Assembly: GCA_031370005.1 (NCBI GenBank)
Contig: JANMPT010000028.1
Coordinates: 64,001 to 128,000, forward strand
Origin: Bdellovibrionales bacterium
GTDB taxonomy: Bacteria; Bdellovibrionota; Bdellovibrionia; Bdellovibrionales; Bdellovibrionaceae
DNA length: 64,000 nt
Direction: 5' to 3'
Below are positions 6,356-16,996 of the stretch, one piece after another. Within the stretch, counting starts at the first letter, position 1, and each line of letters starts with the position of its first letter. Below the pieces are notes generated by a model. That model saw only the letters and a list, made by a program, of their open reading frames with translations. It was not told where the DNA came from and searched no databases. A program made the translations under genes and the position numbers.

Positions 6356-6628
6356 CTAGCCAGCTTTTTTCCTAATGGTGCTTTCAATTAAAATACGAAC
6401 ATATTTTTGAACACCCAAGCCTGATTGTTCAGCTTGTTTTTTAATTTCTTTTAAAAGCTTTTCGCTGAGCCTTACAGACAAGACTTTATCTTTCTTCTCT
6501 CTAAGCTCAAATTTTACAGCTTGCCAGCCACCCTCAGCTATAAAATCACTAAGGTCTCCAGCTAATGGGTCGTCAATATCATCAACAACTTTATTCATTT
6601 TCTTTGATTTTTTTGACTTCTCTTTCAT
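6356..6628 (-). CDS. BrnA/CopG-like RHH antitoxin
   Basis: C-terminal RHH-like 'KDKVLSVRLSEKLLKEIKKQAEQSGLGVQKYVRILI'; ATG at 6628 after GAGGAAGAGG; overlaps the toxin 3' end. Confidence 0.75.
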   Translation of the reverse strand: MKEKSKKSKKMNKVVDDIDDPLAGDLSDFIAEGGWQAVKFELREKKDKVLSVRLSEKLLKEIKKQAEQSGLGVQKYVRILIESTIRKKAG

Positions 6629-6917
6629 AAGCCTCTTCCTCTTTTTTATGAGTGTATCTAGCACTAATTGGACGAATTAACCTTTCATCGCCTTTAACCC
6701 TGACTGTGAAAGCTACAAGCAAACATCTCTTAGGGTCTTGGGTGTAGCCCATTGCCAAGAGCCTCTCTTCGCTAAATGAATGCCTGAGGTCTTCCTTAAT
6801 CAAAAGTTCCTGTTTAAAGAAATCCTCAAGAGTTTCCAGTGGAACTCTAGCCTCTATTTTGGCTGTATTTCCATCGTCCCAGTCTAATCCATCATATTCT
6901 AGTGTTGATAATCTCAT
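6591..6917 (-). CDS. brnT: BrnT-family ribonuclease toxin
   Basis: 'LDWDDGNTAK', 'DLRHSFSEERLLAMG' and 'LVAFTVR…LIRPISARY…KKE' are typical BrnT motifs; toxin-first order. Confidence 0.8.
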   Translation of the reverse strand: MRLSTLEYDGLDWDDGNTAKIEARVPLETLEDFFKQELLIKEDLRHSFSEERLLAMGYTQDPKRCLLVAFTVRVKGDERLIRPISARYTHKKEEEAYEREVKKIKENE

Positions 6918-7057
6918 AGTTGCTGTTTGTCAATATAGCACATTTGTAATTAAATTGTAATACATTTTTATATACATTCGTATATCTTTAATTTGACTAT
7001 GGGATTTAACATAATAATCTTTTGCCCAAATAGCTCACACAGACCAGGACGTTTTCC

Positions 7058-8266
7058 CTAAACTCCGGTGGATTGAATGAAGGTGGATTTATCAACTAAT
7101 GTATTGTCGCCGAGCTCACCGCCCCAATTAACTCCAGTGGCGAAAACTAAGCCATCTGATCTCAGGGCAGTGGTGTCATACCATCCACCCGCAATCGTTG
7201 CCACATTTGAAACGCCTAAGGCTTGCACAAAAGTTGACTTGCCAACTATTGTATTATCGCCGAGCTGGCCGTGGGAGTTTGCCCCGCAGGCAAAAACCAA
7301 ACCATCGGATCTCAAGGCGATCGTGTGACCAATTCCCGCAGCCACCGCCACCGCATTTGAAATTCCTAAGGCCTGTACGAAACTTGATTTATTGACTAGC
7401 GTATTATCCCCAAGCTGGCCGCTTGTATTTTGCCCCGTAGCAAAGACCAAACCATCAGCTCTCAAGGCGACCGTGTGGTAAAATCCGCAGGCAAGCGCCA
7501 CCGCATTTGAAATTCCCAGAGCCTGTACGTAAGTTAATTTGCCAGTAACTGTATTGTCCCCAAGCTGGCCCATGGAGTTATATCCACAAGCAAAGACCAA
7601 ACCATCGGACCTCAAGCTCACTGCGTGTCGTTTCCCAGCTGCGGCCGCCACCGCATTTGAAATTCCTAAGGCCTGTACGAAAGTTGATTTGGCAACCCCT
7701 GTTCCATCCCCAAGTTCACCGTCCACATTGTAACCAGCGGCAAAAACCAAACCGTCTGATCTCACCGCTATAGTATTACTCCCACCGCCAGCAATCGAGG
7801 CCACGCCCGAAACACCCAAGGCTTGCACGTAAGTTGATTTATCAACTATTGTATTATCCCCGAGTTGACCATAGCCATTTTGCCCAGTGGTAAATACCAA
7901 GCCATCAGATCTCAGTGCTATTGTGTGACGATAGCCACAGGCCACCGCGGTTGCACTGGAAACACCCAGGGCTTGCACATAAGTTAATTTATCTACTATT
8001 GTAGTATCGCCAAGCTGGCCCTTGCCATTATAGCCACAGGCAAAAACCAAACCGTCGGATCTCAAGGCAACTGCGAAATCTCCTCCAAAAGCCATCGTCG
8101 GCGACTTTCGCCATGCAACCCGATTGGGCAAACGACCGTGGCCCGTTACTGTTGTGATCGGGCCGAGTTTTTGCCAGGTTTGCGCTAAGGCCGGCTGAAG
8201 CTTTCCAAAAAAAGCTTCAGCTGCGCCAGCCATCCCTGCGAATTTTAGAAATTTTCGGCGATCCAC
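7058..8266 (-). CDS. Tat-signal RCC1/BLIP-II-like seven-bladed beta-propeller protein
   Basis: GTG start; twin-arginine signal MDRRKFLK…PALA; seven ~50-aa repeats of ALRSDGLVFxxGxNxxGQLGDNT…VQALG. Confidence 0.88.
   Translation of the reverse strand: MDRRKFLKFAGMAGAAEAFFGKLQPALAQTWQKLGPITTVTGHGRLPNRVAWRKSPTMAFGGDFAVALRSDGLVFACGYNGKGQLGDTTIVDKLTYVQALGVSSATAVACGYRHTIALRSDGLVFTTGQNGYGQLGDNTIVDKSTYVQALGVSGVASIAGGGSNTIAVRSDGLVFAAGYNVDGELGDGTGVAKSTFVQALGISNAVAAAAGKRHAVSLRSDGLVFACGYNSMGQLGDNTVTGKLTYVQALGISNAVALACGFYHTVALRADGLVFATGQNTSGQLGDNTLVNKSSFVQALGISNAVAVAAGIGHTIALRSDGLVFACGANSHGQLGDNTIVGKSTFVQALGVSNVATIAGGWYDTTALRSDGLVFATGVNWGGELGDNTLVDKSTFIQSTGV
7061..8095 (-). repeat. Seven ~150-bp tandem coding repeats (RCC1 blades)
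   Basis: Near-identical DNA such as 'caaaaaccaaaccatcggatctca' and 'gtattatccccaagctggcc' recurs at 150-bp spacing. Confidence 0.85.
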
Positions 8267-9049
8267 TTAGGCTCTTCCTGACTTCCAAAAAGACAAAGCA
8301 TCCGCTTGATGCCACAGGTCTGGCGGTAAAATCGGTTCCCGCACAATATGTGACAATTCCTTGCGGACTTTGTGCATGCCCTTTAGATTCACGTCTTGAT
8401 CGAATTCATCATAAGAGGCTTCGACGTCGTTAAAGTTATGAGCAAAATAAGGCTCATCTAAAAATTTATAAATATCACGCATCACAGCTTCTGGGGAACG
8501 ACAGAGGTCATCGTAGTTCACCAGCAAAATCATTTCACGCTCGCCGCCGTACACAGCTTGCTTAAGTCCATTTAAGGCAAAACCAATAGTCCTGTCTGGG
8601 CGTAAGAGTGCTGCAGTTCTGGCATACACATCTGCGGACTCTTCGGGGGAAAAAAGCGAACTCACGGAATAAGGATTTTTACGCAAGAGCTGTTCGAAAC
8701 TATCCAAAATCCAAGGGATATCTCGAACACAGCAAATCATTTTGGCTTGAGGATAAACGTCGTGGATTAGTGATGTCATCAAAGTCCACCCACGGTTGGT
8801 ATCAAATGCCACTTCGTGAGAATCCTCATAGTAAGTCTGAAGTAAACTTTTAATTAGCTTACGGCGCTTACTCTCGGGACACTGGGTCCGATAGCCCCCT
8901 TGGGCTTGGGCCTCATTCACAATTGCTCGGACCATTCGCGCGGCCGGTCCTGAAATCGAAGCAGAAAATTTTGGATTCTGATTCAGAACTGTTGAAAGAA
9001 GGGTTGTTCCCGATCGTGGTAAACCAGAAATAAAATGTATTTTCTCCAT
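8267..9049 (-). CDS. Sulfotransferase-family protein
   Basis: 5'-PSB motif ISGLPRSGTTLL and 3'-PB-like 'ICCVRDIPWILDS'; likely ATG at 9049 after GAGGGG; stop abuts the RCC1 start. Confidence 0.85.
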   Translation of the reverse strand: MEKIHFISGLPRSGTTLLSTVLNQNPKFSASISGPAARMVRAIVNEAQAQGGYRTQCPESKRRKLIKSLLQTYYEDSHEVAFDTNRGWTLMTSLIHDVYPQAKMICCVRDIPWILDSFEQLLRKNPYSVSSLFSPEESADVYARTAALLRPDRTIGFALNGLKQAVYGGEREMILLVNYDDLCRSPEAVMRDIYKFLDEPYFAHNFNDVEASYDEFDQDVNLKGMHKVRKELSHIVREPILPPDLWHQADALSFWKSGRA

Positions 9050-9124
9050 GACCCCACCCCTCAATAATCCCTTAATTATGGCGTGAATTTTGGCGCTGAT
9101 GCAAACTCTATTTAGAGCCAGCAC

Positions 9125-12100
9125 CTATTTGCAAATATATAAATCGCCATTAGAATCCCTGGTGATTGAGCCCGTTAGTCCAGCACAACTTGTCACTCCA
9201 GAAGTAATTACTCCACTATTTCCGGCCAATTGAACAACTGCACTACTAATAACTGTTTTACCAGTACCCGCAGGTGTAAGTGTGACATCATTATTTACAC
9301 CACCGGCTGCAAAGGCCAATGCTCCAGTTCCAGTAATCGAGCCTGTGGCAGTTCCTGTCCCGCCATTAGCAACCGGTAAAATTCCAGTAAGTTGAGTGGC
9401 AGCATCAATAGAGATATTGGCGCAGCTCATGATGTCACCCACTGAGTTGTAAGTCAGAGTTTGATTTGCTCCACAAGAAGATGCAAACATGCTGGCTCCG
9501 GTGACATTTGATCGCAAATCAGTCATGGCAATAAAACCTGAGGCCCAAGCCGTTCCATTCCAACGAAGAGCTTGGCCCGTAGAAGTCCCGGCCGTAATTG
9601 ACACCACTGGAGTTGTTGTCCCAGTAGCTACAGAAATTGGAGCCGTACCACTCACACTTGTTACAGTTCCACTGTTGCCACTTGCCCAACTTAAGTTACC
9701 CGCGCCATCAGTTTGCAAAAACTGACTTGCAGAACCCGCAGTACTTGGAAGAGTCAAAGTCGTATTTGTCACTGTACTTGGATAACGAAGGGAGGCCACA
9801 CCAGCCCCTGCGCCACCAATATCGACTCCTTTAGTAACTGCCACTGAAGCGGCCGTTAATTGCAAAATCTTACTTGCAACCCCAGCTTGGGTTGAATCCA
9901 CTGCTATAGTTCCAGTACTAGTGATCGTGCCGCCAGTGAGACCAGCTCCCGCCACAATACTGGTGACAGTGCCATTGGTACTGCTCACCATATTGGTCCA
10001 AGCACCGTTTTCGTAAGCCTCAAATTTATTCGTATCAGAAGCATAACGTATCATTCCGTTAACACCCACAGTTGGGCGATTAGCAACCGTATCCCGAGGA
10101 ATGATCATGGAGCTCGCAGCAACACCCGTCCCAGTGATATCAAGACGAGTCCCTGTTGTTGGGGATGTTGTGCCGATGCCGACGTTACCGGCAAAATAAG
10201 AGGGCGCAGTCGAGTCAGAAGCATAGACTGACCATTTATTCGTGCCTTGGATAGTTCCAGTATAAACGCCATATGCATTGGTGATTGTGCCAATCGGTTG
10301 TGTTATTGATGATTTCAAACCGTATGCGTTGGTGACAGTGCCAACGCCTACGGTTTGAACCGAGCCATTTAATCCTACCGCAGTCGTGATGTTTCCCGAC
10401 GCCGCGTTAATAATAACTCCACTTAAGCCGTATGCGGTAGTAACCGTGGCAATTCCGCCATTCTGAGCAAGCCCTTGGGCCCCTACCATACTAGGGGTAG
10501 CTATACCACTAGTGTAATAATTGGTGAAGTTAGCCGTTACACCGGATGAACCATTATTGGCGGTGTCATAGACCACGAAAGGAGAATTTGGCGTCGTTAT
10601 CCCAATCCCGACATTACCCCCCATAAAAGTTGCAGCATACCCAGCCCCAGCTTGAGTCACAGCAAGCGCAGTAGAGGCACTGCTTGAGTTATTTACCAAA
10701 GGCCCTGTCATTGTATCCCCAGCCTTAGCAACATAACCAGTAGCAACTGAGGCACTAGTAACTAAATCAGAGTAGGCCCCGCCGTTTTGTGAAGCTTTAA
10801 AGGTGTTGGATGTGGAATCAAAATAAATTCTGCCTTGTGTAGCAGGGGATAGGGCGGGGGCCACCATTCCCCGTTGGGTGATAGCGCCATTGATATCTAG
10901 GATCGAAGCTGGGGCTGTCGTGCCGATACCGACGTTGCCGTTATTTTTAATCGTCATCACCGAATTACTCAGCGTCGGAGTACTTGAATCAAGGGCAGAG
11001 TTTTGTAAAAAGTGAAAATCGCCTGTATTCCACGTCCCTGAGGTTTGATAAACAAGAGCGCCTTTTCCGCGATTGGGCGCAGGGTTACCCCCACCATCAC
11101 CATCAACTGAAAATAATATTCCCGTTCCACCGTTTATTCCATAATTGTCTAATTTTAATGAATAAGTAACACCTGCCACGGATTCTGCAATATGAAGTTT
11201 TTGTTGCGGAGTCGTGGTCCCAATTCCGACATTTCCAGAACTAAGAATAGTCATTCTTTCGGTGTTATTTGTTATGAATCCCAGATCAAAGTTATCAATA
11301 TTACCGATAGTTGATTTTGCACCAAAGCTATTACCGTTTTTTGCCCAACCAGTTGTTGAAGTCAATCCCGCAACCCAGCTCATATTTCCGGAAGCATCTG
11401 ATTGCAGACTTTGACCAGCACTTGGGGCCGCTGCTGGCCACTTTAATCCATATGTAGAGCTTGCTGCTTGCGCTGATAAAGTAACTGTTCCTGTATTTGT
11501 GAGCGCTAGGCCAGCGGCCGTTGCAACACCAGTTCCGTCTAGAGACAATAATTTATTTGATTGCCCCGTGGTGGTTTTGTTGGCAGTCACGACACCCGCA
11601 TTGCTGATTGTTGCATCCCCTGACATACTCACGGCTGTGGCTACGTTTGAAGCGTTACCAAGCCACATAAGACCATTATTAAGACCTGGCAAAGATGCTG
11701 CTGGAGCTGCCCAGCTTAAGTTACCCGCGCCATCAGTTTGCAAGAACTGACTTGCAGAACCCGCAGTCGGCGGAAGAGTCAAAGTGGTATTCGTTGCCGT
11801 GTTTGGATAGCGGATAGAGGCGACACCTGTGCCCGCACCACCAATGTCCTCACCTTTTGTTACGGCCACTGAGCCCGCTGTTAATTGCAAAATCTTACTG
11901 GCCGCTGCAGCTTGAGTTTTATCCACAGTCACCACACCACCAGAACTCATTGTGGCATCGCCTGATAAGGCAAACTCTTGGGCCTTGCTGCCAACGTCAC
12001 CGATCCAGATTTTTGTTGGTGACAGCGTGGCTGTATTTGTAACTGCTCCCAATTTAGTATTAAAGCTATCGTAGTCTGTCTTACTAATAAGACCAGCAGT

Positions 12101-13702
12101 GACTGCTGCTGTGGAAGCCATCGGGATATTCAAAGTGTGAGTGCTAGGAGCAGTAGTAAAGGCCGGAGCCGTGCCACTTGTGCCAATTGCAAATGTTTGG
12201 GTACCAGAGGTCAAGCCATTGAGTGAGGTAATGCCTGCCCCTGCGACTCCGAGAGCTTTTACTGCAGTTCCATCGTAGTACTTAATAACATTTGAAGTGG
12301 AGTTATACCAAACCTGACCTGTGGCCGGAATCACTGGATCCGCAGCATTGCTTGAAAGACCAAAGGTCTTACTCGCCGCCATTGAAATATTACCAGTATT
12401 GCTAATATCAAAGCCACCCATATTGAGGGCTCCACCCATGGTGTCCCCAGCTTTATTCACTGGAGTATAACCAAGAGCTGTTGTGATATCACCAGAAGCC
12501 AAATTAGAGCCGGAGGTCACACGACCCTGAGCATCCGTTGTGACTTTGTAGTAGGTTCCGGCCGTGCCCGTGTTTTTTAAAGTCACAGCTCCAGAGTTGG
12601 CCATAGTTGCGTCACCTGACATCGCCACGGCGGTGGCGACGTTTGAGCCATTACCGACCCAGATGCTGCCAGAAGTTAATGAAGATCCAATTTTAGAATT
12701 AAATATATTCCAATCCGCAGAAGTTAAGTAACCATTTGTGGTGGTGTTTGCCGCCGGAATATTAATAATAGGAGCTGCTGCTGTACCAGTGACAGTAAGA
12801 GGTGCTGTTGCCGACACACTCGTTACAGAACCAGAACCTAAAGATTGCAAAACCCAAGATGTTCCGTTTGAAACCAAAGCCTGACCATTCGTCGGGGCTC
12901 CTCCTGGAAGAGCCTGGCCTAATATTGTTGTCACTTTATTATTACCACTTACAACAGTCACATCACCAGTTACCGGAAGATAGGCAGCACTCGGATTGTT
13001 CACGAGACGGAAGAATTCAGCTAGTTTTGTGGCATTCAAGTCACTATTAACAGGACTGACAATTGTTGGATCGATTCTCAACAAATGATTTTGATCATAG
13101 CCATTTACTTTACTGGAATCAAAAGCCTGAAGGGCCATGGGAACCGGAGTGACTCTTAATGGAGGAAGAGCTTGGTCAGCGCCAGTGGCTCCAATTCTGA
13201 AGTAAATACCAAGGACACGGCCCTCGTTAGGATCCGTGGATGTTCCTGGATTATAAGCGGTGCTCACACAATTTGGCGAAGGGTCTAACCCTGTAAAACT
13301 TTTATTGTTATTAAAAACATCAGCAAGACTTTTAGGACCGCCAGCTAGCGGATTGTTAAAAGACGGTGTTCCATAAAGTGTCGTTGAATCGTTAGAGCCG
13401 ATTTCAAAAGAAAAGGTCCCAGCTGAATTGGACAAGTCGACTTTGCGTTGCTCAGTATAAAGCCAACATTTTTGATCAGGATCATAAACAGTAATAGTAA
13501 AGATAACTTGACTAGAAACAACGGGTACATCATTTGAGTCCAGAATTCGACCAGTATATGTAATTCCTGAAGTTGGAGCCACCGCCAAGGACTGCTGAGT
13601 AAACAGTAGTAAGAATAAAATAACAGCCGTCTTGATGGAATTTGGTGAATTTGTAATTATTCGACGAAGATTTATACACGTACAGCTAATAAGTGTTTTC
13701 AT
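9125..13702 (-). CDS. Phage-tail-fibre-like trimeric adhesin (Bdellovibrio MAT-like); no recognisable C-terminal S74 chaperone or tip domain
   Basis: Signal peptide; N-domain 'GITYTGRILDS…CWLYTEQ'; repeated GNVGIGTTxP, SGDATM, VNKAGDTM and LQTDGAGNLSW modules; G/T/S/A-rich. Confidence 0.85.
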   Translation of the reverse strand: MKTLISCTCINLRRIITNSPNSIKTAVILFLLLFTQQSLAVAPTSGITYTGRILDSNDVPVVSSQVIFTITVYDPDQKCWLYTEQRKVDLSNSAGTFSFEIGSNDSTTLYGTPSFNNPLAGGPKSLADVFNNNKSFTGLDPSPNCVSTAYNPGTSTDPNEGRVLGIYFRIGATGADQALPPLRVTPVPMALQAFDSSKVNGYDQNHLLRIDPTIVSPVNSDLNATKLAEFFRLVNNPSAAYLPVTGDVTVVSGNNKVTTILGQALPGGAPTNGQALVSNGTSWVLQSLGSGSVTSVSATAPLTVTGTAAAPIINIPAANTTTNGYLTSADWNIFNSKIGSSLTSGSIWVGNGSNVATAVAMSGDATMANSGAVTLKNTGTAGTYYKVTTDAQGRVTSGSNLASGDITTALGYTPVNKAGDTMGGALNMGGFDISNTGNISMAASKTFGLSSNAADPVIPATGQVWYNSTSNVIKYYDGTAVKALGVAGAGITSLNGLTSGTQTFAIGTSGTAPAFTTAPSTHTLNIPMASTAAVTAGLISKTDYDSFNTKLGAVTNTATLSPTKIWIGDVGSKAQEFALSGDATMSSGGVVTVDKTQAAAASKILQLTAGSVAVTKGEDIGGAGTGVASIRYPNTATNTTLTLPPTAGSASQFLQTDGAGNLSWAAPAASLPGLNNGLMWLGNASNVATAVSMSGDATISNAGVVTANKTTTGQSNKLLSLDGTGVATAAGLALTNTGTVTLSAQAASSTYGLKWPAAAPSAGQSLQSDASGNMSWVAGLTSTTGWAKNGNSFGAKSTIGNIDNFDLGFITNNTERMTILSSGNVGIGTTTPQQKLHIAESVAGVTYSLKLDNYGINGGTGILFSVDGDGGGNPAPNRGKGALVYQTSGTWNTGDFHFLQNSALDSSTPTLSNSVMTIKNNGNVGIGTTAPASILDINGAITQRGMVAPALSPATQGRIYFDSTSNTFKASQNGGAYSDLVTSASVATGYVAKAGDTMTGPLVNNSSSASTALAVTQAGAGYAATFMGGNVGIGITTPNSPFVVYDTANNGSSGVTANFTNYYTSGIATPSMVGAQGLAQNGGIATVTTAYGLSGVIINAASGNITTAVGLNGSVQTVGVGTVTNAYGLKSSITQPIGTITNAYGVYTGTIQGTNKWSVYASDSTAPSYFAGNVGIGTTSPTTGTRLDITGTGVAASSMIIPRDTVANRPTVGVNGMIRYASDTNKFEAYENGAWTNMVSSTNGTVTSIVAGAGLTGGTITSTGTIAVDSTQAGVASKILQLTAASVAVTKGVDIGGAGAGVASLRYPSTVTNTTLTLPSTAGSASQFLQTDGAGNLSWASGNSGTVTSVSGTAPISVATGTTTPVVSITAGTSTGQALRWNGTAWASGFIAMTDLRSNVTGASMFASSCGANQTLTYNSVGDIMSCANISIDAATQLTGILPVANGGTGTATGSITGTGALAFAAGGVNNDVTLTPAGTGKTVISSAVVQLAGNSGVITSGVTSCAGLTGSITRDSNGDLYICK
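9684..9877 (-). repeat. Internal repeat of the fibre gene, copy A (copy B at 11709..11902)
   Basis: Ungapped ~194-bp match encoding ASKILQLTAxSVAVTKGxDIGGAG…QFLQTDGAGNLSWA. Confidence 0.9.
11709..11902 (-). repeat. Internal repeat of the fibre gene, copy B
   Basis: Matches 9684..9877 and the external fragment at 17694..17887. Confidence 0.9.
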
Positions 13703-13709
13703 ATGTTAA

Positions 13710-13737
13710 AGATCGGCAAAGATTAGACCTTTCTAAA
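13710..13737 (-). promoter_or_regulatory. Putative sigma-28 (FliA)-type promoter of the fibre operon
   Basis: Minus strand TTAG-N15-GCCGATCT, 7 nt upstream of the ATG. Confidence 0.5.
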
Positions 13738-14240
13738 GAGGGCTTTTATTTTTTTTCTGGGGACCAGCCTATATTCGATTTAAAAATGAAATTCTTATTT
13801 TGAGATTTCTCGCTTTGAGAAAATCCAGCTATGAAACACGCAACACCCAGGCACCGTCTCGGAGTTCAAAGGCTAAAATTTTCTCGCCTTCACAGCCAAA
13901 TAAAGCAACGTCCAAGACTTTCATGACTCAAGCCAATTTTTTAACAAGGAGTTCCCATGAGCATTCAAGGTACTATCAAAAATTTAGTGAAAGTGTTTTT
14001 AGGTTTCCGCAGAAGATGATCGCCGATCTTCGCGGTAGAGCACTCACAGGTGCCTCCACCAGTTGGCATTGCCCTTCGATCTTCAGCAAGAATGCTTGCA
14101 AGGAGTATAATCCCAAGAACTATAAGTGAGAATTTCATGCCGATTCCAATAGGCCATTTTTCTAAGCAGATTCAACGGGTTCCTGCTCGCCAAACCCATG
14201 TTATATTGAAAGATTGAGCTGAGTGTCTTGTTTAATATAA

Positions 14241-14268
14241 TTGACATTTATATTTATATGTAGATAAT
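14241..14268 (+). promoter_or_regulatory. Putative sigma-70 promoter (probably leaderless) for the abiEi-abiEii pair
   Basis: TTGACA-N16-GATAAT, then 7 nt to the ATG; no Shine-Dalgarno. Confidence 0.55.
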
Positions 14269-14275
14269 AGTAAAC

Positions 14276-14917
14276 ATGGCAGCAAAGCGACAACCCTATC
14301 TTTACAAGAAAAACAAGTTGGCTTTAGGCTTGAAAAAGGCACTCACGCTTATCGAGAAGGGAGGGGGCATTATTCGCACCTCCGAAGCCATGGATTTGGG
14401 CGTTCATGCCGTCAGTCTATATCGTCTTCGTGACCAAGGCTTGATTGAACAAATAAGTCGCGGAGTTTTTCGTCTCAGCTCCCTTCCTTCAATTGCGAAT
14501 CCTGACCTCATCACTGTGGCTAAAAGGATTCCAAAGGGAGTCGTTTGCTTGATTTCAGCACTGGCCTTCCACGGCCTGACGACTCAGATTCCCAGGCATG
14601 TCTTTGTCGCCCTCCCTCGTCAAACTATGAAGCCACGGCTACAATATCCGCCGATAAGAATATTCTGGTATTCGACCAAAGCGATAAAAAATGGAGTTGA
14701 AATTCATAGGCTCGACGGAGTCCCTGTATCAATTTTCAGTGCTGAAAAATCTGTCGCAGATGCATTTAAATACCGTAACAAAATTGGCTTTGACGTGGCG
14801 CTAGAGGCGCTCCGGATGTGGCGACGAAAAAAAGGTGACCTCGATGGGCTTCTTAAATTCGCAAAAATTTGCCGGGTTGAAAAGGTGATGAGACCCTACC
14901 TGGAGGCAATACTTTGA
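14276..14917 (+). CDS. abiEi: Type IV TA antitoxin, AbiEi family
   Basis: N-terminal wHTH 'IEQISRGVFRL'; 'VVCLISALAFHGLTTQIP' and 'EKSVADAFKYRNKIG' motifs. Confidence 0.88.
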   Translation: MAAKRQPYLYKKNKLALGLKKALTLIEKGGGIIRTSEAMDLGVHAVSLYRLRDQGLIEQISRGVFRLSSLPSIANPDLITVAKRIPKGVVCLISALAFHGLTTQIPRHVFVALPRQTMKPRLQYPPIRIFWYSTKAIKNGVEIHRLDGVPVSIFSAEKSVADAFKYRNKIGFDVALEALRMWRRKKGDLDGLLKFAKICRVEKVMRPYLEAIL

Positions 14918-15612
14918 AAAAGAATATTTCGGCCTCAGTGAGAGACCGCCTTGCTACGTTAGCAAAAAAGACTGACCGGCCATTCAATGAGGTACTTGTT
15001 TATTATGGAATCGAGAGATTTCTTTATCGACTCGGACGGTCTGAATTTGAAAAGAAATTTGTTTTGAAGGGTGCCCTCATGATCCAAGTTTGGTCGCAAG
15101 AAATGGCAAGAGCAACCCAGGATGTTGATTTTCTTGGACGTATGAAAAATGACCTTGATGGAATTGCCCGAGCTCTCAAGATTGTGTGTGAGACGCCGCC
15201 TGAAGTCGACGATGGTTTGCGCTTTTCATCTGAATCAATCAAGTTGGAGCGTATTCAGGAGCAAGAGGGATACGAAGGTGTACGTGCTTTCTTAGTTGCC
15301 CATCTTGGCCAAGCAAGAATTCCGATTCAGATTGATATCGGATTCGGCGATCCGGTTGTTCCGTCACCATCAAGAGTTGAATACCCGACGCTGCTTGATT
15401 TTCCTGCGCCAAAGATCACTGGCTATCCGCGCGAAAGCGCAATCGCAGAAAAAGTTCAAGCTATGATCCGATTTAAAATTCTGAATAGTCGGATGAAAGA
15501 TTTCTATGACATTTGGCTCTTGGCGCGAAGCTTTGACTTTGATGGCGATGTTCTTTTCACGGCAATCAAACTAGTATATCGACGTAAGCCCCACCATTTT
15601 GCGAAGCTTTAA
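14914..15612 (+). pseudogene. abiEii: AbiEii-family nucleotidyltransferase toxin, 3'-truncated by a fibre-gene fragment
   Basis: VLKGAL, RATQDVDF, IDIGFGD, AEK and SRMKDFYD motifs; after '…VLFTAIK' (~15570) the frame runs into antisense fibre DNA and stops at 232 aa. Confidence 0.75.
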
Positions 15613-15797
15613 AGGTGTTGGATGTGGAATCAAAATAAATTCGGCCTTGTGTCGCAGGGGAAAGGGCCGGTGCCGCCATTCCGCGTTGGGTGAAGGCGCC
15701 GTTGATATCTAGGATGGAACTGGGTGCTGTCGTCCCAATACCAACAGTGCCCGCAACATCCAACTTAGCGCCCGGACCTGTAGTTCCTATCCCGACG
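15572..15797 (-). pseudogene. Isolated fragment 1 of a fibre-adhesin gene
   Basis: Encodes VGIGTTGPGAKLDVAGTVGIGTTAPSSILDINGAFTQRGMAAPALSPATQGRIYFDSTSNTFKASQNGGAY; DNA closely matches ~10770..10933. Confidence 0.9.
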
Positions 15798-15798
15798 A

Positions 15799-15827
15799 TT
15801 GACAAAGCTCCGGAAATGCACGACAAT
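15799..15827 (+). promoter_or_regulatory. Putative sigma-70 promoter for the AAA/DUF4143 gene
   Basis: TTGACA-N17-GACAAT, 8 nt before the ATG at 15836. Confidence 0.5.
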
Positions 15828-15835
15828 TTCGGAGT

Positions 15836-16996
15836 ATGGTCAATAGAATTCAAAAATTAAGTAAAACCAATAACTTATTCCTGTTTGGCGCAAGGGGATG
15901 CGGTAAATCCACGCTGTTAAAGGAACTCTTCCCAAGGTCAAAGACGCTCTGGATTGATCTGCTCACTGCGCAGGATGAAGAGCGTTTTCGCCGGGATCCT
16001 GATCAATTGTCTTATTTAATTGAAAGCCAAAAACCCAAAAGAGTCATCCTGGATGAAGTTCAAAAAATTCCAAAGCTCCTCGACATTGTTCACCGTCAGA
16101 TCGAACTGAATCCTGATTTGCAGTTTGTATTAACAGGTTCAAGTGCTCGAAAGCTGAAGCGGGGTGCGGCCAATCTTCTTGCTGGGCGGGCGATCGAGTA
16201 TTTTCTCTTTCCGCTGACGACTTCAGAACTAGGTTCTCGGTTTCAGCTGAGTGAGGTTTTGCGTTTTGGAAGTCTGCCGAAGCTTCTTCACCTGGCTTCA
16301 GAAGAAGAGAAATCCGATTACCTGCGGACTTATGCACGGACCTATCTCAAAGAGGAAATTCTGCAAGAACAAATTATCAGAAACATCGATCCATTCCAAG
16401 ACTTCCTCGAGGTGGCCGCGCAAACGAACGGCAAAATTTTAAGTTATTCAAAAATTTCGCGAGATTTGGGGGTCGATGACAAGACTGTGAAAAACTACTT
16501 CTCTGTCTTGGCGGACACCTACGTCGGATTTTTCCTTCCTTCCTTTCATCGCTCGATCCGCAAACGCCAGCGGGAAGCTCCCAAATTTTATTTTTTTGAT
16601 TTGGGCGTCAAGCGCGCCTTGGAAAGGAATCTGTCTGTCGATTTGAATTCAAGTTCCTATGCTTTTGGTGAAGCCTTTGAAACCTGGGTCGTACAAGAAT
16701 GTTTTCGCTTGAACGAGTATTTTAAGAGGGATTTTCGATTGTCTTATCTCCGCACACAATCCGATGTCGAAATTGACTTGATTCTTGAAAGACCAGGTCA
16801 ACCTGATTTACTGGTCGAGATTAAGTCGACCGGCTTCCTCCGTGAGGAGGATGTGAAATCAATTTCCAAAATAGCCAACGCCTGGGATCGCCCATGCCAA
16901 AGCCAAGTCTGGTCACAAGATCCAAGTTCAAAAACAATTCTTGGCGTTGAGTGCTTGAGTTGGAGAATTGGACTTCGCGATGCCTTCGAGAAATAA
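15836..16996 (+). CDS. AAA_14 ATPase with DUF4143 and C-terminal PD-(D/E)xK-like domain
   Basis: GARGCGKST, ILDEVQK, LTGSSA, LLAGRA, PKFYFFDLG and EIDLILE…LVEIKS motifs. Confidence 0.88.
   Translation: MVNRIQKLSKTNNLFLFGARGCGKSTLLKELFPRSKTLWIDLLTAQDEERFRRDPDQLSYLIESQKPKRVILDEVQKIPKLLDIVHRQIELNPDLQFVLTGSSARKLKRGAANLLAGRAIEYFLFPLTTSELGSRFQLSEVLRFGSLPKLLHLASEEEKSDYLRTYARTYLKEEILQEQIIRNIDPFQDFLEVAAQTNGKILSYSKISRDLGVDDKTVKNYFSVLADTYVGFFLPSFHRSIRKRQREAPKFYFFDLGVKRALERNLSVDLNSSSYAFGEAFETWVVQECFRLNEYFKRDFRLSYLRTQSDVEIDLILERPGQPDLLVEIKSTGFLREEDVKSISKIANAWDRPCQSQVWSQDPSSKTILGVECLSWRIGLRDAFEK

Follow-up and report, generated by a model that had tools for sequence, protein, structure and literature searches.

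A candidate two-part MAT fibre in Bdellovibrionaceae, with a hairpin-ended stalk and a separately encoded tip that carries a Tat signal

We analysed a 64,000-nucleotide stretch of DNA from a Bdellovibrionales bacterium (assembly GCA_031370005.1, contig JANMPT010000028.1, positions 64,001 to 128,000), hereafter the window. Within its positions 7058..13702, three tightly packed open reading frames (ORFs) on the minus strand encode a long fibre, a sulfotransferase, and a protein of RCC1 repeats with a twin-arginine translocation (Tat) signal, the GTG start of the RCC1 gene following immediately after the sulfotransferase stop. We think it probable that the fibre and the RCC1 protein are the two parts of one mosaic adhesive trimer (MAT) fibre, in which a Tat-exported tip would dock on the stalk by donating a strand. 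This reading is carried by conserved motifs at the end of the one protein and the beginning of the other, by the co-occurrence and adjacency of their genes, by three types of passenger found behind the same tail, by the free state of that tail in a structure prediction, and by a modelled interface. A preliminary description of the stretch had interpreted the locus as a case of strand complementation; our computations support that interpretation, and none of the refutation tests that were run went against it. Our comparison set comprised 182 genomes of the family, labelled G with a number (the window's own genome is G000), with loci labelled L. The main features of the window, all on the minus strand, are listed below.

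9125..13702, minus: MAT-family fibre stalk, 1525 amino acids (aa), without a tip domain and without S74 (NF053851 Bdello_MAT_N)
9128..9187, minus: terminal hairpin, putatively Cys-bridged, C1506..C1524-K1525, CAGLTGSITRDSNGDLYICK, ending ..GDLYICK and stop; proposed docking socket (conservation and complex model)
7058..8266, minus: Tat-signal RCC1 propeller, 402 aa, proposed tip (Pfam, AlphaFold2, TIGR01409)
8183..8266, minus: twin-arginine signal peptide, aa 1-28, MDRRKFLKF..PALA (TIGR01409)
8162..8182, minus: donor-strand motif QTWQKLG, predicted mature N-terminus (conservation and complex model)
8108..8182, minus: free N-terminal tail and linker, mature residues 1-25 (predicted local distance difference test score, pLDDT, < 50)
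7061..8107, minus: seven-bladed RCC1 beta-propeller (AlphaFold2; PF25390, PF00415, PF13540)

The fibre stalk ends in a conserved hairpin

The 1525-aa protein matched the NCBIfam profile NF053851 Bdello_MAT_N over residues 32-209 (91.5 bits, cut-off 60), and its residues 800-945 weakly resembled the solved MAT fibres 8ojn (E 1e-4) and 8ond (E 2e-4). These two matches place it, at the level of sequence, in the MAT family. In the sections of the work on Bdellovibrio MAT fibres drawn on here (Caulton et al. 2024, PMC10769870), members of this family are described as alike in their N-terminal domain and variable in their C-terminal tip, which is an S74 chaperone-protease or a tip domain of another kind. 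The stalk departs from that plan at one point, as it has no tip on the same chain: a Pfam scan of the fibre returned zero domains, hence neither S74 nor a tip, as the preliminary description had stated, and the chain ends in a hairpin of 20 residues.

This hairpin follows the consensus C-x4-G-x-[IVL]-x-x-D-x-x-G-[DN]-L-[YF]-[IV]-C-[KN], and its two cysteines would form a disulfide. Nine positions (C, G, R, D, G, D, L, Y and C) were invariant across seven aligned termini; the termini of G167 and G092, which were found later, differ at some of these nine. A back-translated pattern, G-D-L-Y-[IV]-C-[KN]-stop, had matches in 6 of the 182 family genomes and none in the controls, and a looser hairpin pattern matched 9 of the 182 with 2 control matches. 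Inspection left seven true fibre ends (G000, G005, G008, G192, G028, G167 and G092), the matches in G094 and G152 being due to chance. The variants GDLFVCK and GNLYICN lie outside the strict pattern and surfaced via the tail profile described below; the looser pattern was used thereafter. When a stricter 36-base pattern was run on species-representative genomes, it returned four loci, all with terminal sequences already known and none new; in metagenomes it returned three loci, two of which were real fibre ends and the third of which (L084) was a chance match.

The terminal element aligns with a complete hairpin inside the same fibre (C1410..C1427) and therefore appears to be a natural terminus. 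Judged by this alignment and by its conservation, the hairpin end is a conserved natural terminus of the fibre and not an accidental truncation. Here the preliminary description stood in part. It had reported three complete copies of a small module, which a script search recovered with the quoted sequences at residues 462, 957 and 1216, and a last copy that was cut off at 9125..9190; a short copy does begin at residue 1511, and the coordinates hold exactly (the last 21 aa plus the stop), but the end itself is conserved, and its being one strand short is a way of reading the letters. The remaining features of the stalk are as follows.

13583..13702, minus: predicted Sec-type signal peptide, aa 1-40, with ..QQSLA and VAPTSG on either side of the predicted cut (read from the translation)
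13076..13609, minus: conserved MAT N-terminal (cell-proximal) domain, aa 32-209 (NF053851)
12248..12319, minus: complete three-strand module 1, aa 462-485, GQVWYNSTSNVIKYYDGTAVKALG (script search)
10763..10834, minus: complete module 2, aa 957-980 (script search)
9986..10057, minus: complete module 3, aa 1216-1239 (script search)
9422..9475, minus: internal hairpin, putatively Cys-bridged, C1410..C1427, alignable with the terminal hairpin (aligned by eye)

In a joint model of three stalk C-termini of 130 aa each, the pLDDT was 83-84. Hairpin-ended stalks ranged from 398 to 1525 aa in length, and Bdello_MAT_N scored above its cut-off in all five with a readable N-terminus (the window, G028, G092, G167 and L082). 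Matches to the MAT N-terminal domain numbered 6-29 per genome in five complete genomes of genus g10. We observed just three genes with this domain in the whole of G000; of the two outside the unit described here, one has an S74-like SDxxxK region at its end and the other is broken by a contig end.

The RCC1 protein carries a twin-arginine signal followed by a free tail

The proposed tip has seven RCC1 repeats (PF25390, 265 bits, with further matches to PF00415 and PF13540), and AlphaFold2 folded the mature protein, from 70 aligned sequences, into 28 strands and seven blades with a mean pLDDT of 93.0 and a predicted template modelling score of 0.89. Both results bear out the seven-bladed propeller of the preliminary description. 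In this model mature residues 1-25 have a pLDDT below 50, and the propeller is closed by its own strands, residues 30-32 and 365-370. The signal peptide passed the cut-off of TIGR01409 TAT_signal (18.5 bits against 16.7) and fell below that of the Pfam TAT_signal family (16.2 against 22.7), so that the twin-arginine signal noted earlier was recovered by one profile and missed by the other. TatC is encoded in the window genome (PF00902, 244 bits, G000:C31).

Fifteen tail proteins from eight genomes could be aligned. Residues A28, W31 and K33 are invariant among them, R3 and A26 are nearly so, and the twin arginine is RR in 14 of the 15 and KR in one. The motif lies behind the conserved AxA, so that cleavage would uncover TWxK rather than delete it: a cut after AxA would leave a mature protein that starts x-[TN]-W-x-K-[LIV]. 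The motif QTWQKLG at 8162..8182, whose position had been given exactly, is thus predicted to survive signal cleavage, as the preliminary description had assumed. Its conservation in relatives, likewise anticipated there, extends beyond the aligned set: of the 120 best metagenomic RCC1 homologues, 13 share the layout of Tat signal and tail.

We searched 1.84 billion representative proteins with a profile built on the signal and the tail, and just 29 matched at E<=0.001. Two of these had been seen already and six were giant proteins with internal multi-stretch matches; the 21 that were read comprised 19 RCC1-type proteins, one with S74 and one with a beta-sandwich tip. By this count of sequences, the signal-plus-tail system is rare.

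We also noted variation in the number of motifs and of repeats. The donor motif occurs twice in a second RCC1 protein of the window genome (G000:C82:403-1629, L037) and three times in the metagenome protein P0246, the copies being spaced by Gly/Ser/Ala/Pro linkers of ~8 residues; such repetition could allow one monomer to occupy several sockets of a trimer. Short versions with one to three RCC1 repeats were numerous among the metagenome proteins. In G192, a 133-aa Tat-plus-tail protein (L077:3384-3785) retains a single RCC1 repeat, apparently after collapse by recombination between repeats, and the adjoining stalk and sulfotransferase are each split into two ORFs.

Stalk and tail co-occur, and the tail precedes three types of passenger

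Using the tail profile on the 182 genomes, we found 15 genes in eight of them at E<=6e-5 (G000, G005, G008, G192, G028, G092, G167 and G180). Another 11 genomes gave weaker matches, none of which contained the motif, and an apparent tail motif in L097 was non-coding noise. Hairpin stalk and tail were both present in seven genomes, the tail alone in one and the stalk alone in none (Fisher's test 7e-12, for genomes that are related and come from just five genera). Where the preliminary description had looked for Tat partners of hairpin-ended fibres, we found one within two genes of the stalk in six of the seven genomes and somewhere in the genome in all seven. Their positions and passengers are given below.

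G008: tail gene immediately downstream of the stalk; RCC1
G192: tail gene immediately downstream of the stalk; RCC1 (one repeat)
G092: tail gene immediately downstream of the stalk; Peptidase_S74 piece
G167: tail gene immediately downstream of the stalk; beta-sandwich tip
G000 (window): tail gene second downstream of the stalk; RCC1
G028: tail gene two genes upstream of the stalk; beta-sandwich tip
G005: tail gene elsewhere in the genome; RCC1

The pairing of stalk and tail is beyond chance: each of the two end motifs is conserved, and they recur together in other genomes. Moreover, the same N-terminus stands before varied domains, an expectation raised in the preliminary description: an RCC1 propeller, an S74-chaperone fibre tip or a fibre-tip beta-sandwich. 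The passenger in G092 is a short fibre piece matching Peptidase_S74 at 56.9 bits with the SDxxxK motif, an element found at the C-terminus of ordinary MATs themselves. The passenger in G167 and G028 is a beta-sandwich, modelled for G167 with a pLDDT above 90 and a free N-terminus, and in longer fibre-like proteins the same domain came last in the chain, as each of the 45 alignments listed (of 120 matches) showed. When the G167 tip model was compared with the PDB by Foldseek, nothing matched at E<=0.001, and the best weak rows were phage spikes. To judge by the sequence matches, the S74 piece and the beta-sandwich, two of the three passenger types, are genuine fibre tips that here occur as separate genes with a Tat signal and tail.

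The six adjacent pairs also gave a weak hint of covariation between the two ends. Isoleucine in the stalk went with leucine in the tail in 4 of 4 pairs and valine in the stalk with isoleucine or valine in the tail in 2 of 2, and in 5 of the 6 pairs a stalk ending ..CK went with TWQK and one ending ..CN with TWKK. The pairs are too few and too closely related for this to amount to proof.

A different arrangement was observed at L035:177-5116 (G005:C26), where a MAT of 849 aa that has a tip of its own and ends in ..YASQTWKEQ and stop is followed by two tandem Tat-RCC1 genes without the TWxK tail. The linkage of RCC1 and MAT genes may be of more than one kind.

The tail is predicted to dock on the terminal hairpin

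In the complex model, the C-terminal 130 residues of the stalk and residues 1-30 of the mature RCC1 protein were present as three chains each, both with shallow alignments of our own (7 and 21 rows). It gave an ipSAE interface score of 0.76 (runs 0.76, 0.80 and 0.76, which share at least 94% of their contacts). Three controls, two with an unrelated 30-residue partner and one in which an unrelated protein replaced the stalk, stayed at 0.00-0.01. In calibration, the ipSAE mark was reached by 116 of 157 solved complexes and by 2 of 215 mismatched pairs. The interaction suggested in the preliminary description was thus predicted, with tail residues 1-8 set against residues 125-130 of the 130-aa stalk piece and a best control of 0.01.

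On the tail side, the modelled interface comprises residues 1-8 only; on the stalk side, it comprises residues 101, 104-115, 118-119, 121 and 125-130 of the 130-aa piece. The closest contacts were C129-W3, I128-Q4, Y127-K5 and L126-L6, an order that indicates antiparallel pairing, in the model, between the tail strand and the last hairpin strand (LYIC). An N-terminal extension that adds a strand to a neighbour, a feature of donor-strand assembled fibres, is here a prediction of the complex model.

Sulfation genes and surroundings of the locus

Between the fibre and RCC1 genes lies a sulfotransferase without a signal peptide (PF13469, 66.6 bits). Its ORF is listed as 8267..9124, and the ATG at 9049 is its likely start, which gives a predicted cytoplasmic protein of 260 aa. 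The best solved relatives of the enzyme are protein-tyrosine sulfotransferase 1 (TPST1), a weak likeness (E 7e-4), and orthologues adjoin RCC1 tips in G008, G192 and G180. The candidate substrate would be the tip, the stalk or a glycan. Across these loci we observed a sulfation gene set that accompanies RCC1-type tips and not the other tip types; it consists of the sulfotransferase and an adenosine 5'-phosphosulfate kinase fused to DUF2061, and further ORFs of the set, read from the sequence by eye, resemble cysD, cysN and a glycosyltransferase. The loci are the following.

Window 8267..9049, minus: sulfotransferase
L033:3043-4551 and 11733-13867: sulfation genes
L077:3786-7893: sulfation genes
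L114:2-2949: sulfation genes
L074:1411-5057: sulfation genes

Toxin-antitoxin pairs lie on both sides of the three-gene fibre unit: BrnT with a CopG-type antitoxin downstream (6356..6917, minus) and AbiEi/AbiEii upstream (14276..15612, plus). At both borders of the unit the GC content drops to 0.39-0.40, and these flanks and the GC dip together suggest a variable or mobile region. Between the AbiEii gene and an AAA_14/DUF4143 ATPase gene, at 15566..15853 on the minus strand, we found a 95-aa leftover of another MAT fibre that resembles residues ~900-980 of the fibre studied here and stops just past a complete GRIYFDSTSNTFKASQNGGAY.. module. A scan for promoters and terminators over 6800..14300 was uninformative, with counts no different from the shuffled level. 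Elsewhere, other phage-like adhesin genes share loci with the system: a GP38-family protein at L116:4544-5452 in G092 (PF05268, 33.4 bits), and, at L075:2669-3553 and L117:8991-10766, proteins with ALK/LTK glycine-rich domains. PF05268 had no match among the proteins of the window.

Discussion

We propose that the locus encodes a MAT fibre in two genes. The stalk would be exported unfolded by Sec and would comprise the anchor domain that is usual in MATs, followed by a long trimeric shaft and, where a tip would be expected, the conserved two-Cys hairpin of 20 residues. The tip, here an RCC1 propeller, would fold in the cytoplasm and cross the inner membrane by Tat. Cleavage after AxA would then expose x-[TN]-W-x-K-[LIV]-G on a flexible tail of ~25 residues, and this strand would run antiparallel to L-Y-I-C in the hairpin, with one strand for each chain and three for the trimer, filling the place that a W-x-x-L strand holds in the complete internal modules. 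Different tips could hang on one kind of stalk: with a constant socket, a constant plug and a variable passenger, tips would be exchangeable. A wider version of the proposal is more tentative and, to our minds, rather doubtful as a whole. It describes a general plug-and-socket adhesin system, in which one hairpin stalk takes several Tat-exported tips, including 'orphan' RCC1 copies; propellers, as monomers, would be matched to a trimeric socket through one, two or three copies of the donor motif, and the use of Tat by RCC1 tips would follow from their folding, and perhaps their tyrosine sulfation by the TPST-like enzyme, before they leave the cytoplasm.

Several observations weigh against strand docking of a Tat-exported tip. 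The whole of its support is computational, and a Tat substrate would still have to cross the outer membrane. The TIGR01409 cut-off was reached by just 3 of the 10 partner proteins examined. G180 has five tail-bearing RCC1 genes and no hairpin-ended stalk even by a very loose pattern (5 matches against 7 control matches, none a fibre), in an assembly that is 94% complete and in 280 contigs, with one tail-RCC1 copy starting 70 bases from a contig end. Most tail-RCC1 genes lie apart from any stalk, including two in G005 and the five in G180; the copy on G000:C82 is not beside a stalk (its upstream side is not assembled), and the second copy in G008 is 9 kb away. Conversely, one metagenome stalk end has no Tat gene across 3.7 kb downstream. 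A single-chain form, with the hairpin followed directly by the W strand, gave 2 pattern matches against 2 in the controls, and both candidates (G134 and G199) proved on inspection to be chance matches; nor was any of five large RCC1 ORFs from five genomes a MAT. As for the complex model, our 3+3-chain design with its own alignments lies outside the calibration of the ipSAE score. In addition, the tail partner's own confidence in the complex is low (pLDDT 49-53), and the model may have completed a familiar fibre module, which would be a sign of likeness and not of binding.

What else could the RCC1 protein and its tail be? One answer is a periplasmic helper in the assembly or modification of the fibre, perhaps together with the sulfation genes, the tail serving for export, for anchoring or for some other partner. 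RCC1 copies are indeed linked to genes for the sulfotransferase and for synthesis of 3'-phosphoadenosine 5'-phosphosulfate at four loci (the window, G008, G192 and G180:C261), at G005:C26 tail-less Tat-RCC1 genes come after a MAT with a tip of its own, many RCC1 copies are distant from any stalk, and structure predictors are prone to false positives by beta-strand addition. Such a helper would leave unexplained why the same tail stands on two true fibre-tip passengers, the S74 piece and the C-terminal tip domain. Against it also count the co-occurrence of stalk and tail genome by genome and the three complex-model controls, all of which remained near zero. We regard the helper as unlikely. Lower still is the probability we give to a tail that docks elsewhere, whether on internal Cys-hairpins of this or other MATs, on the MAT anchor domain or on itself, with the terminal hairpin as a mere cap. 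The similar internal hairpin in the same fibre, the tails of G180 (where a terminal hairpin was not detected) and the tails with a motif repeated two or three times all fit such docking, and the complex model covered the terminal region of the stalk only. It sits poorly with the nearly identical patchy distribution of terminal hairpin and tail over the 182 genomes, MAT fibres in general being far commoner.

Two further readings were rejected. The fibre gene might be truncated or decaying, with the RCC1 gene its neighbour by chance, and the fibre leftover at 15566..15853, the toxin-antitoxin genes on either side of the locus and the apparently damaged copy in G192 would agree with that. The last 20 residues, however, are conserved on stalks from five genera and two metagenome contigs, which disposes of truncation or insertion as the origin of the fibre's end, and the adjacency of the tail gene repeats with different passengers; decay is thus very improbable. 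To the eye, TWQKLG also resembles the repeat strand STFVQALG and might be the propeller's own closing 'velcro' strand of blade 7. Seven such strands are already present for the seven blades, non-propeller proteins bear the tail as well, and the AlphaFold2 closure by the propeller's own strands, with residues 1-25 free, speaks directly against this; we give it hardly any weight. Docking of a Tat-exported tip on the hairpin-ended stalk is the reading that we retain.

Of the known systems, four come closest, the last three of them in mechanism. Compared with the Bdellovibrio MATs in the sections of PMC10769870 drawn on here, our fibre shares the N-terminal domain and has a shaft with a weak sequence likeness to the solved Bd2133 fibre, and both would fit the swapping of tips in evolution; theirs have the tip on the same polypeptide, whereas here a hairpin-ended stalk is accompanied by a separate gene for a tip with a Tat signal. 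In haloarchaeal Tafi pili, as portrayed in the parts of PMC12337348 and PMC11821415 on which we draw, Tat-exported subunits are likewise joined by an N-terminal donor strand, and unrelated proteins carry the N-terminal ~40 residues of TafA (Tat signal plus strand). According to the same parts of these two papers (PMC12337348, PMC11821415), Tafi are linear archaeal pili of repeated pilins in cells with no outer membrane; the fibre system would instead join unlike partners, with a Sec-exported, trimeric, phage-like acceptor. The likeness to Tafi is one of mechanism, and a relation in sequence is not expected. Chaperone-usher pili (Fim/Pap), as summarized in part in PMC11821415, attach their adhesin end by an N-terminal extension of one subunit that gives a strand to the next. 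By comparison, our system would involve no Ig-like pilin fold, the acceptor would be the hairpin at a trimer's end, and it is the tip that would donate the strand to the stalk. No chaperone, usher or Taf genes were recognised among the ORFs and Pfam matches of the loci, in the course of an analysis that included no search aimed at them. In T2-type phage fibres, gp38 is a separate distal adhesin on the trimeric gp37 fibre and allows host range to change. The two systems are alike in having a separate tip protein at the distal end of a trimeric fibre, and they differ in that the phage parts assemble in the cytoplasm without a Sec or Tat step.

In the literature covered, supplementary tables excepted, nothing that we found describes a plug-in tip exported by Tat, whether on MATs or on other trimeric fibres of bacteria. 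Neither 'RCC1' nor 'twin-arginine' occurs in PMC10769870 and PMC13147790, supplements excepted, and the one paper found to mention both Bdellovibrio and RCC1 does so only for RCC1 repeats in mis-annotated RTX toxins. MAT fibres, donor-strand assembly and Tat-dependent surface filaments are known kinds, which the proposed fibre would combine.

MAT fibres are thought to determine the prey recognition of Bdellovibrio-like predators, and the Discussion of PMC10769870, in the part drawn on here, poses tip exchange, fibre assembly and fibre export as open questions. If our reading is true, the hairpin of 20 residues and the strand of 7 would form a small docking pair of natural origin, open to reuse in the display of folded proteins on fibres. 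The two-part fibre would also give, in bacteria, an instance of a Tat substrate that joins a surface fibre by strand donation, hitherto described for haloarchaeal pili. For the predators themselves, a constant socket and a constant plug would provide a mechanism by which specificity could be swapped while the stalk is left untouched.

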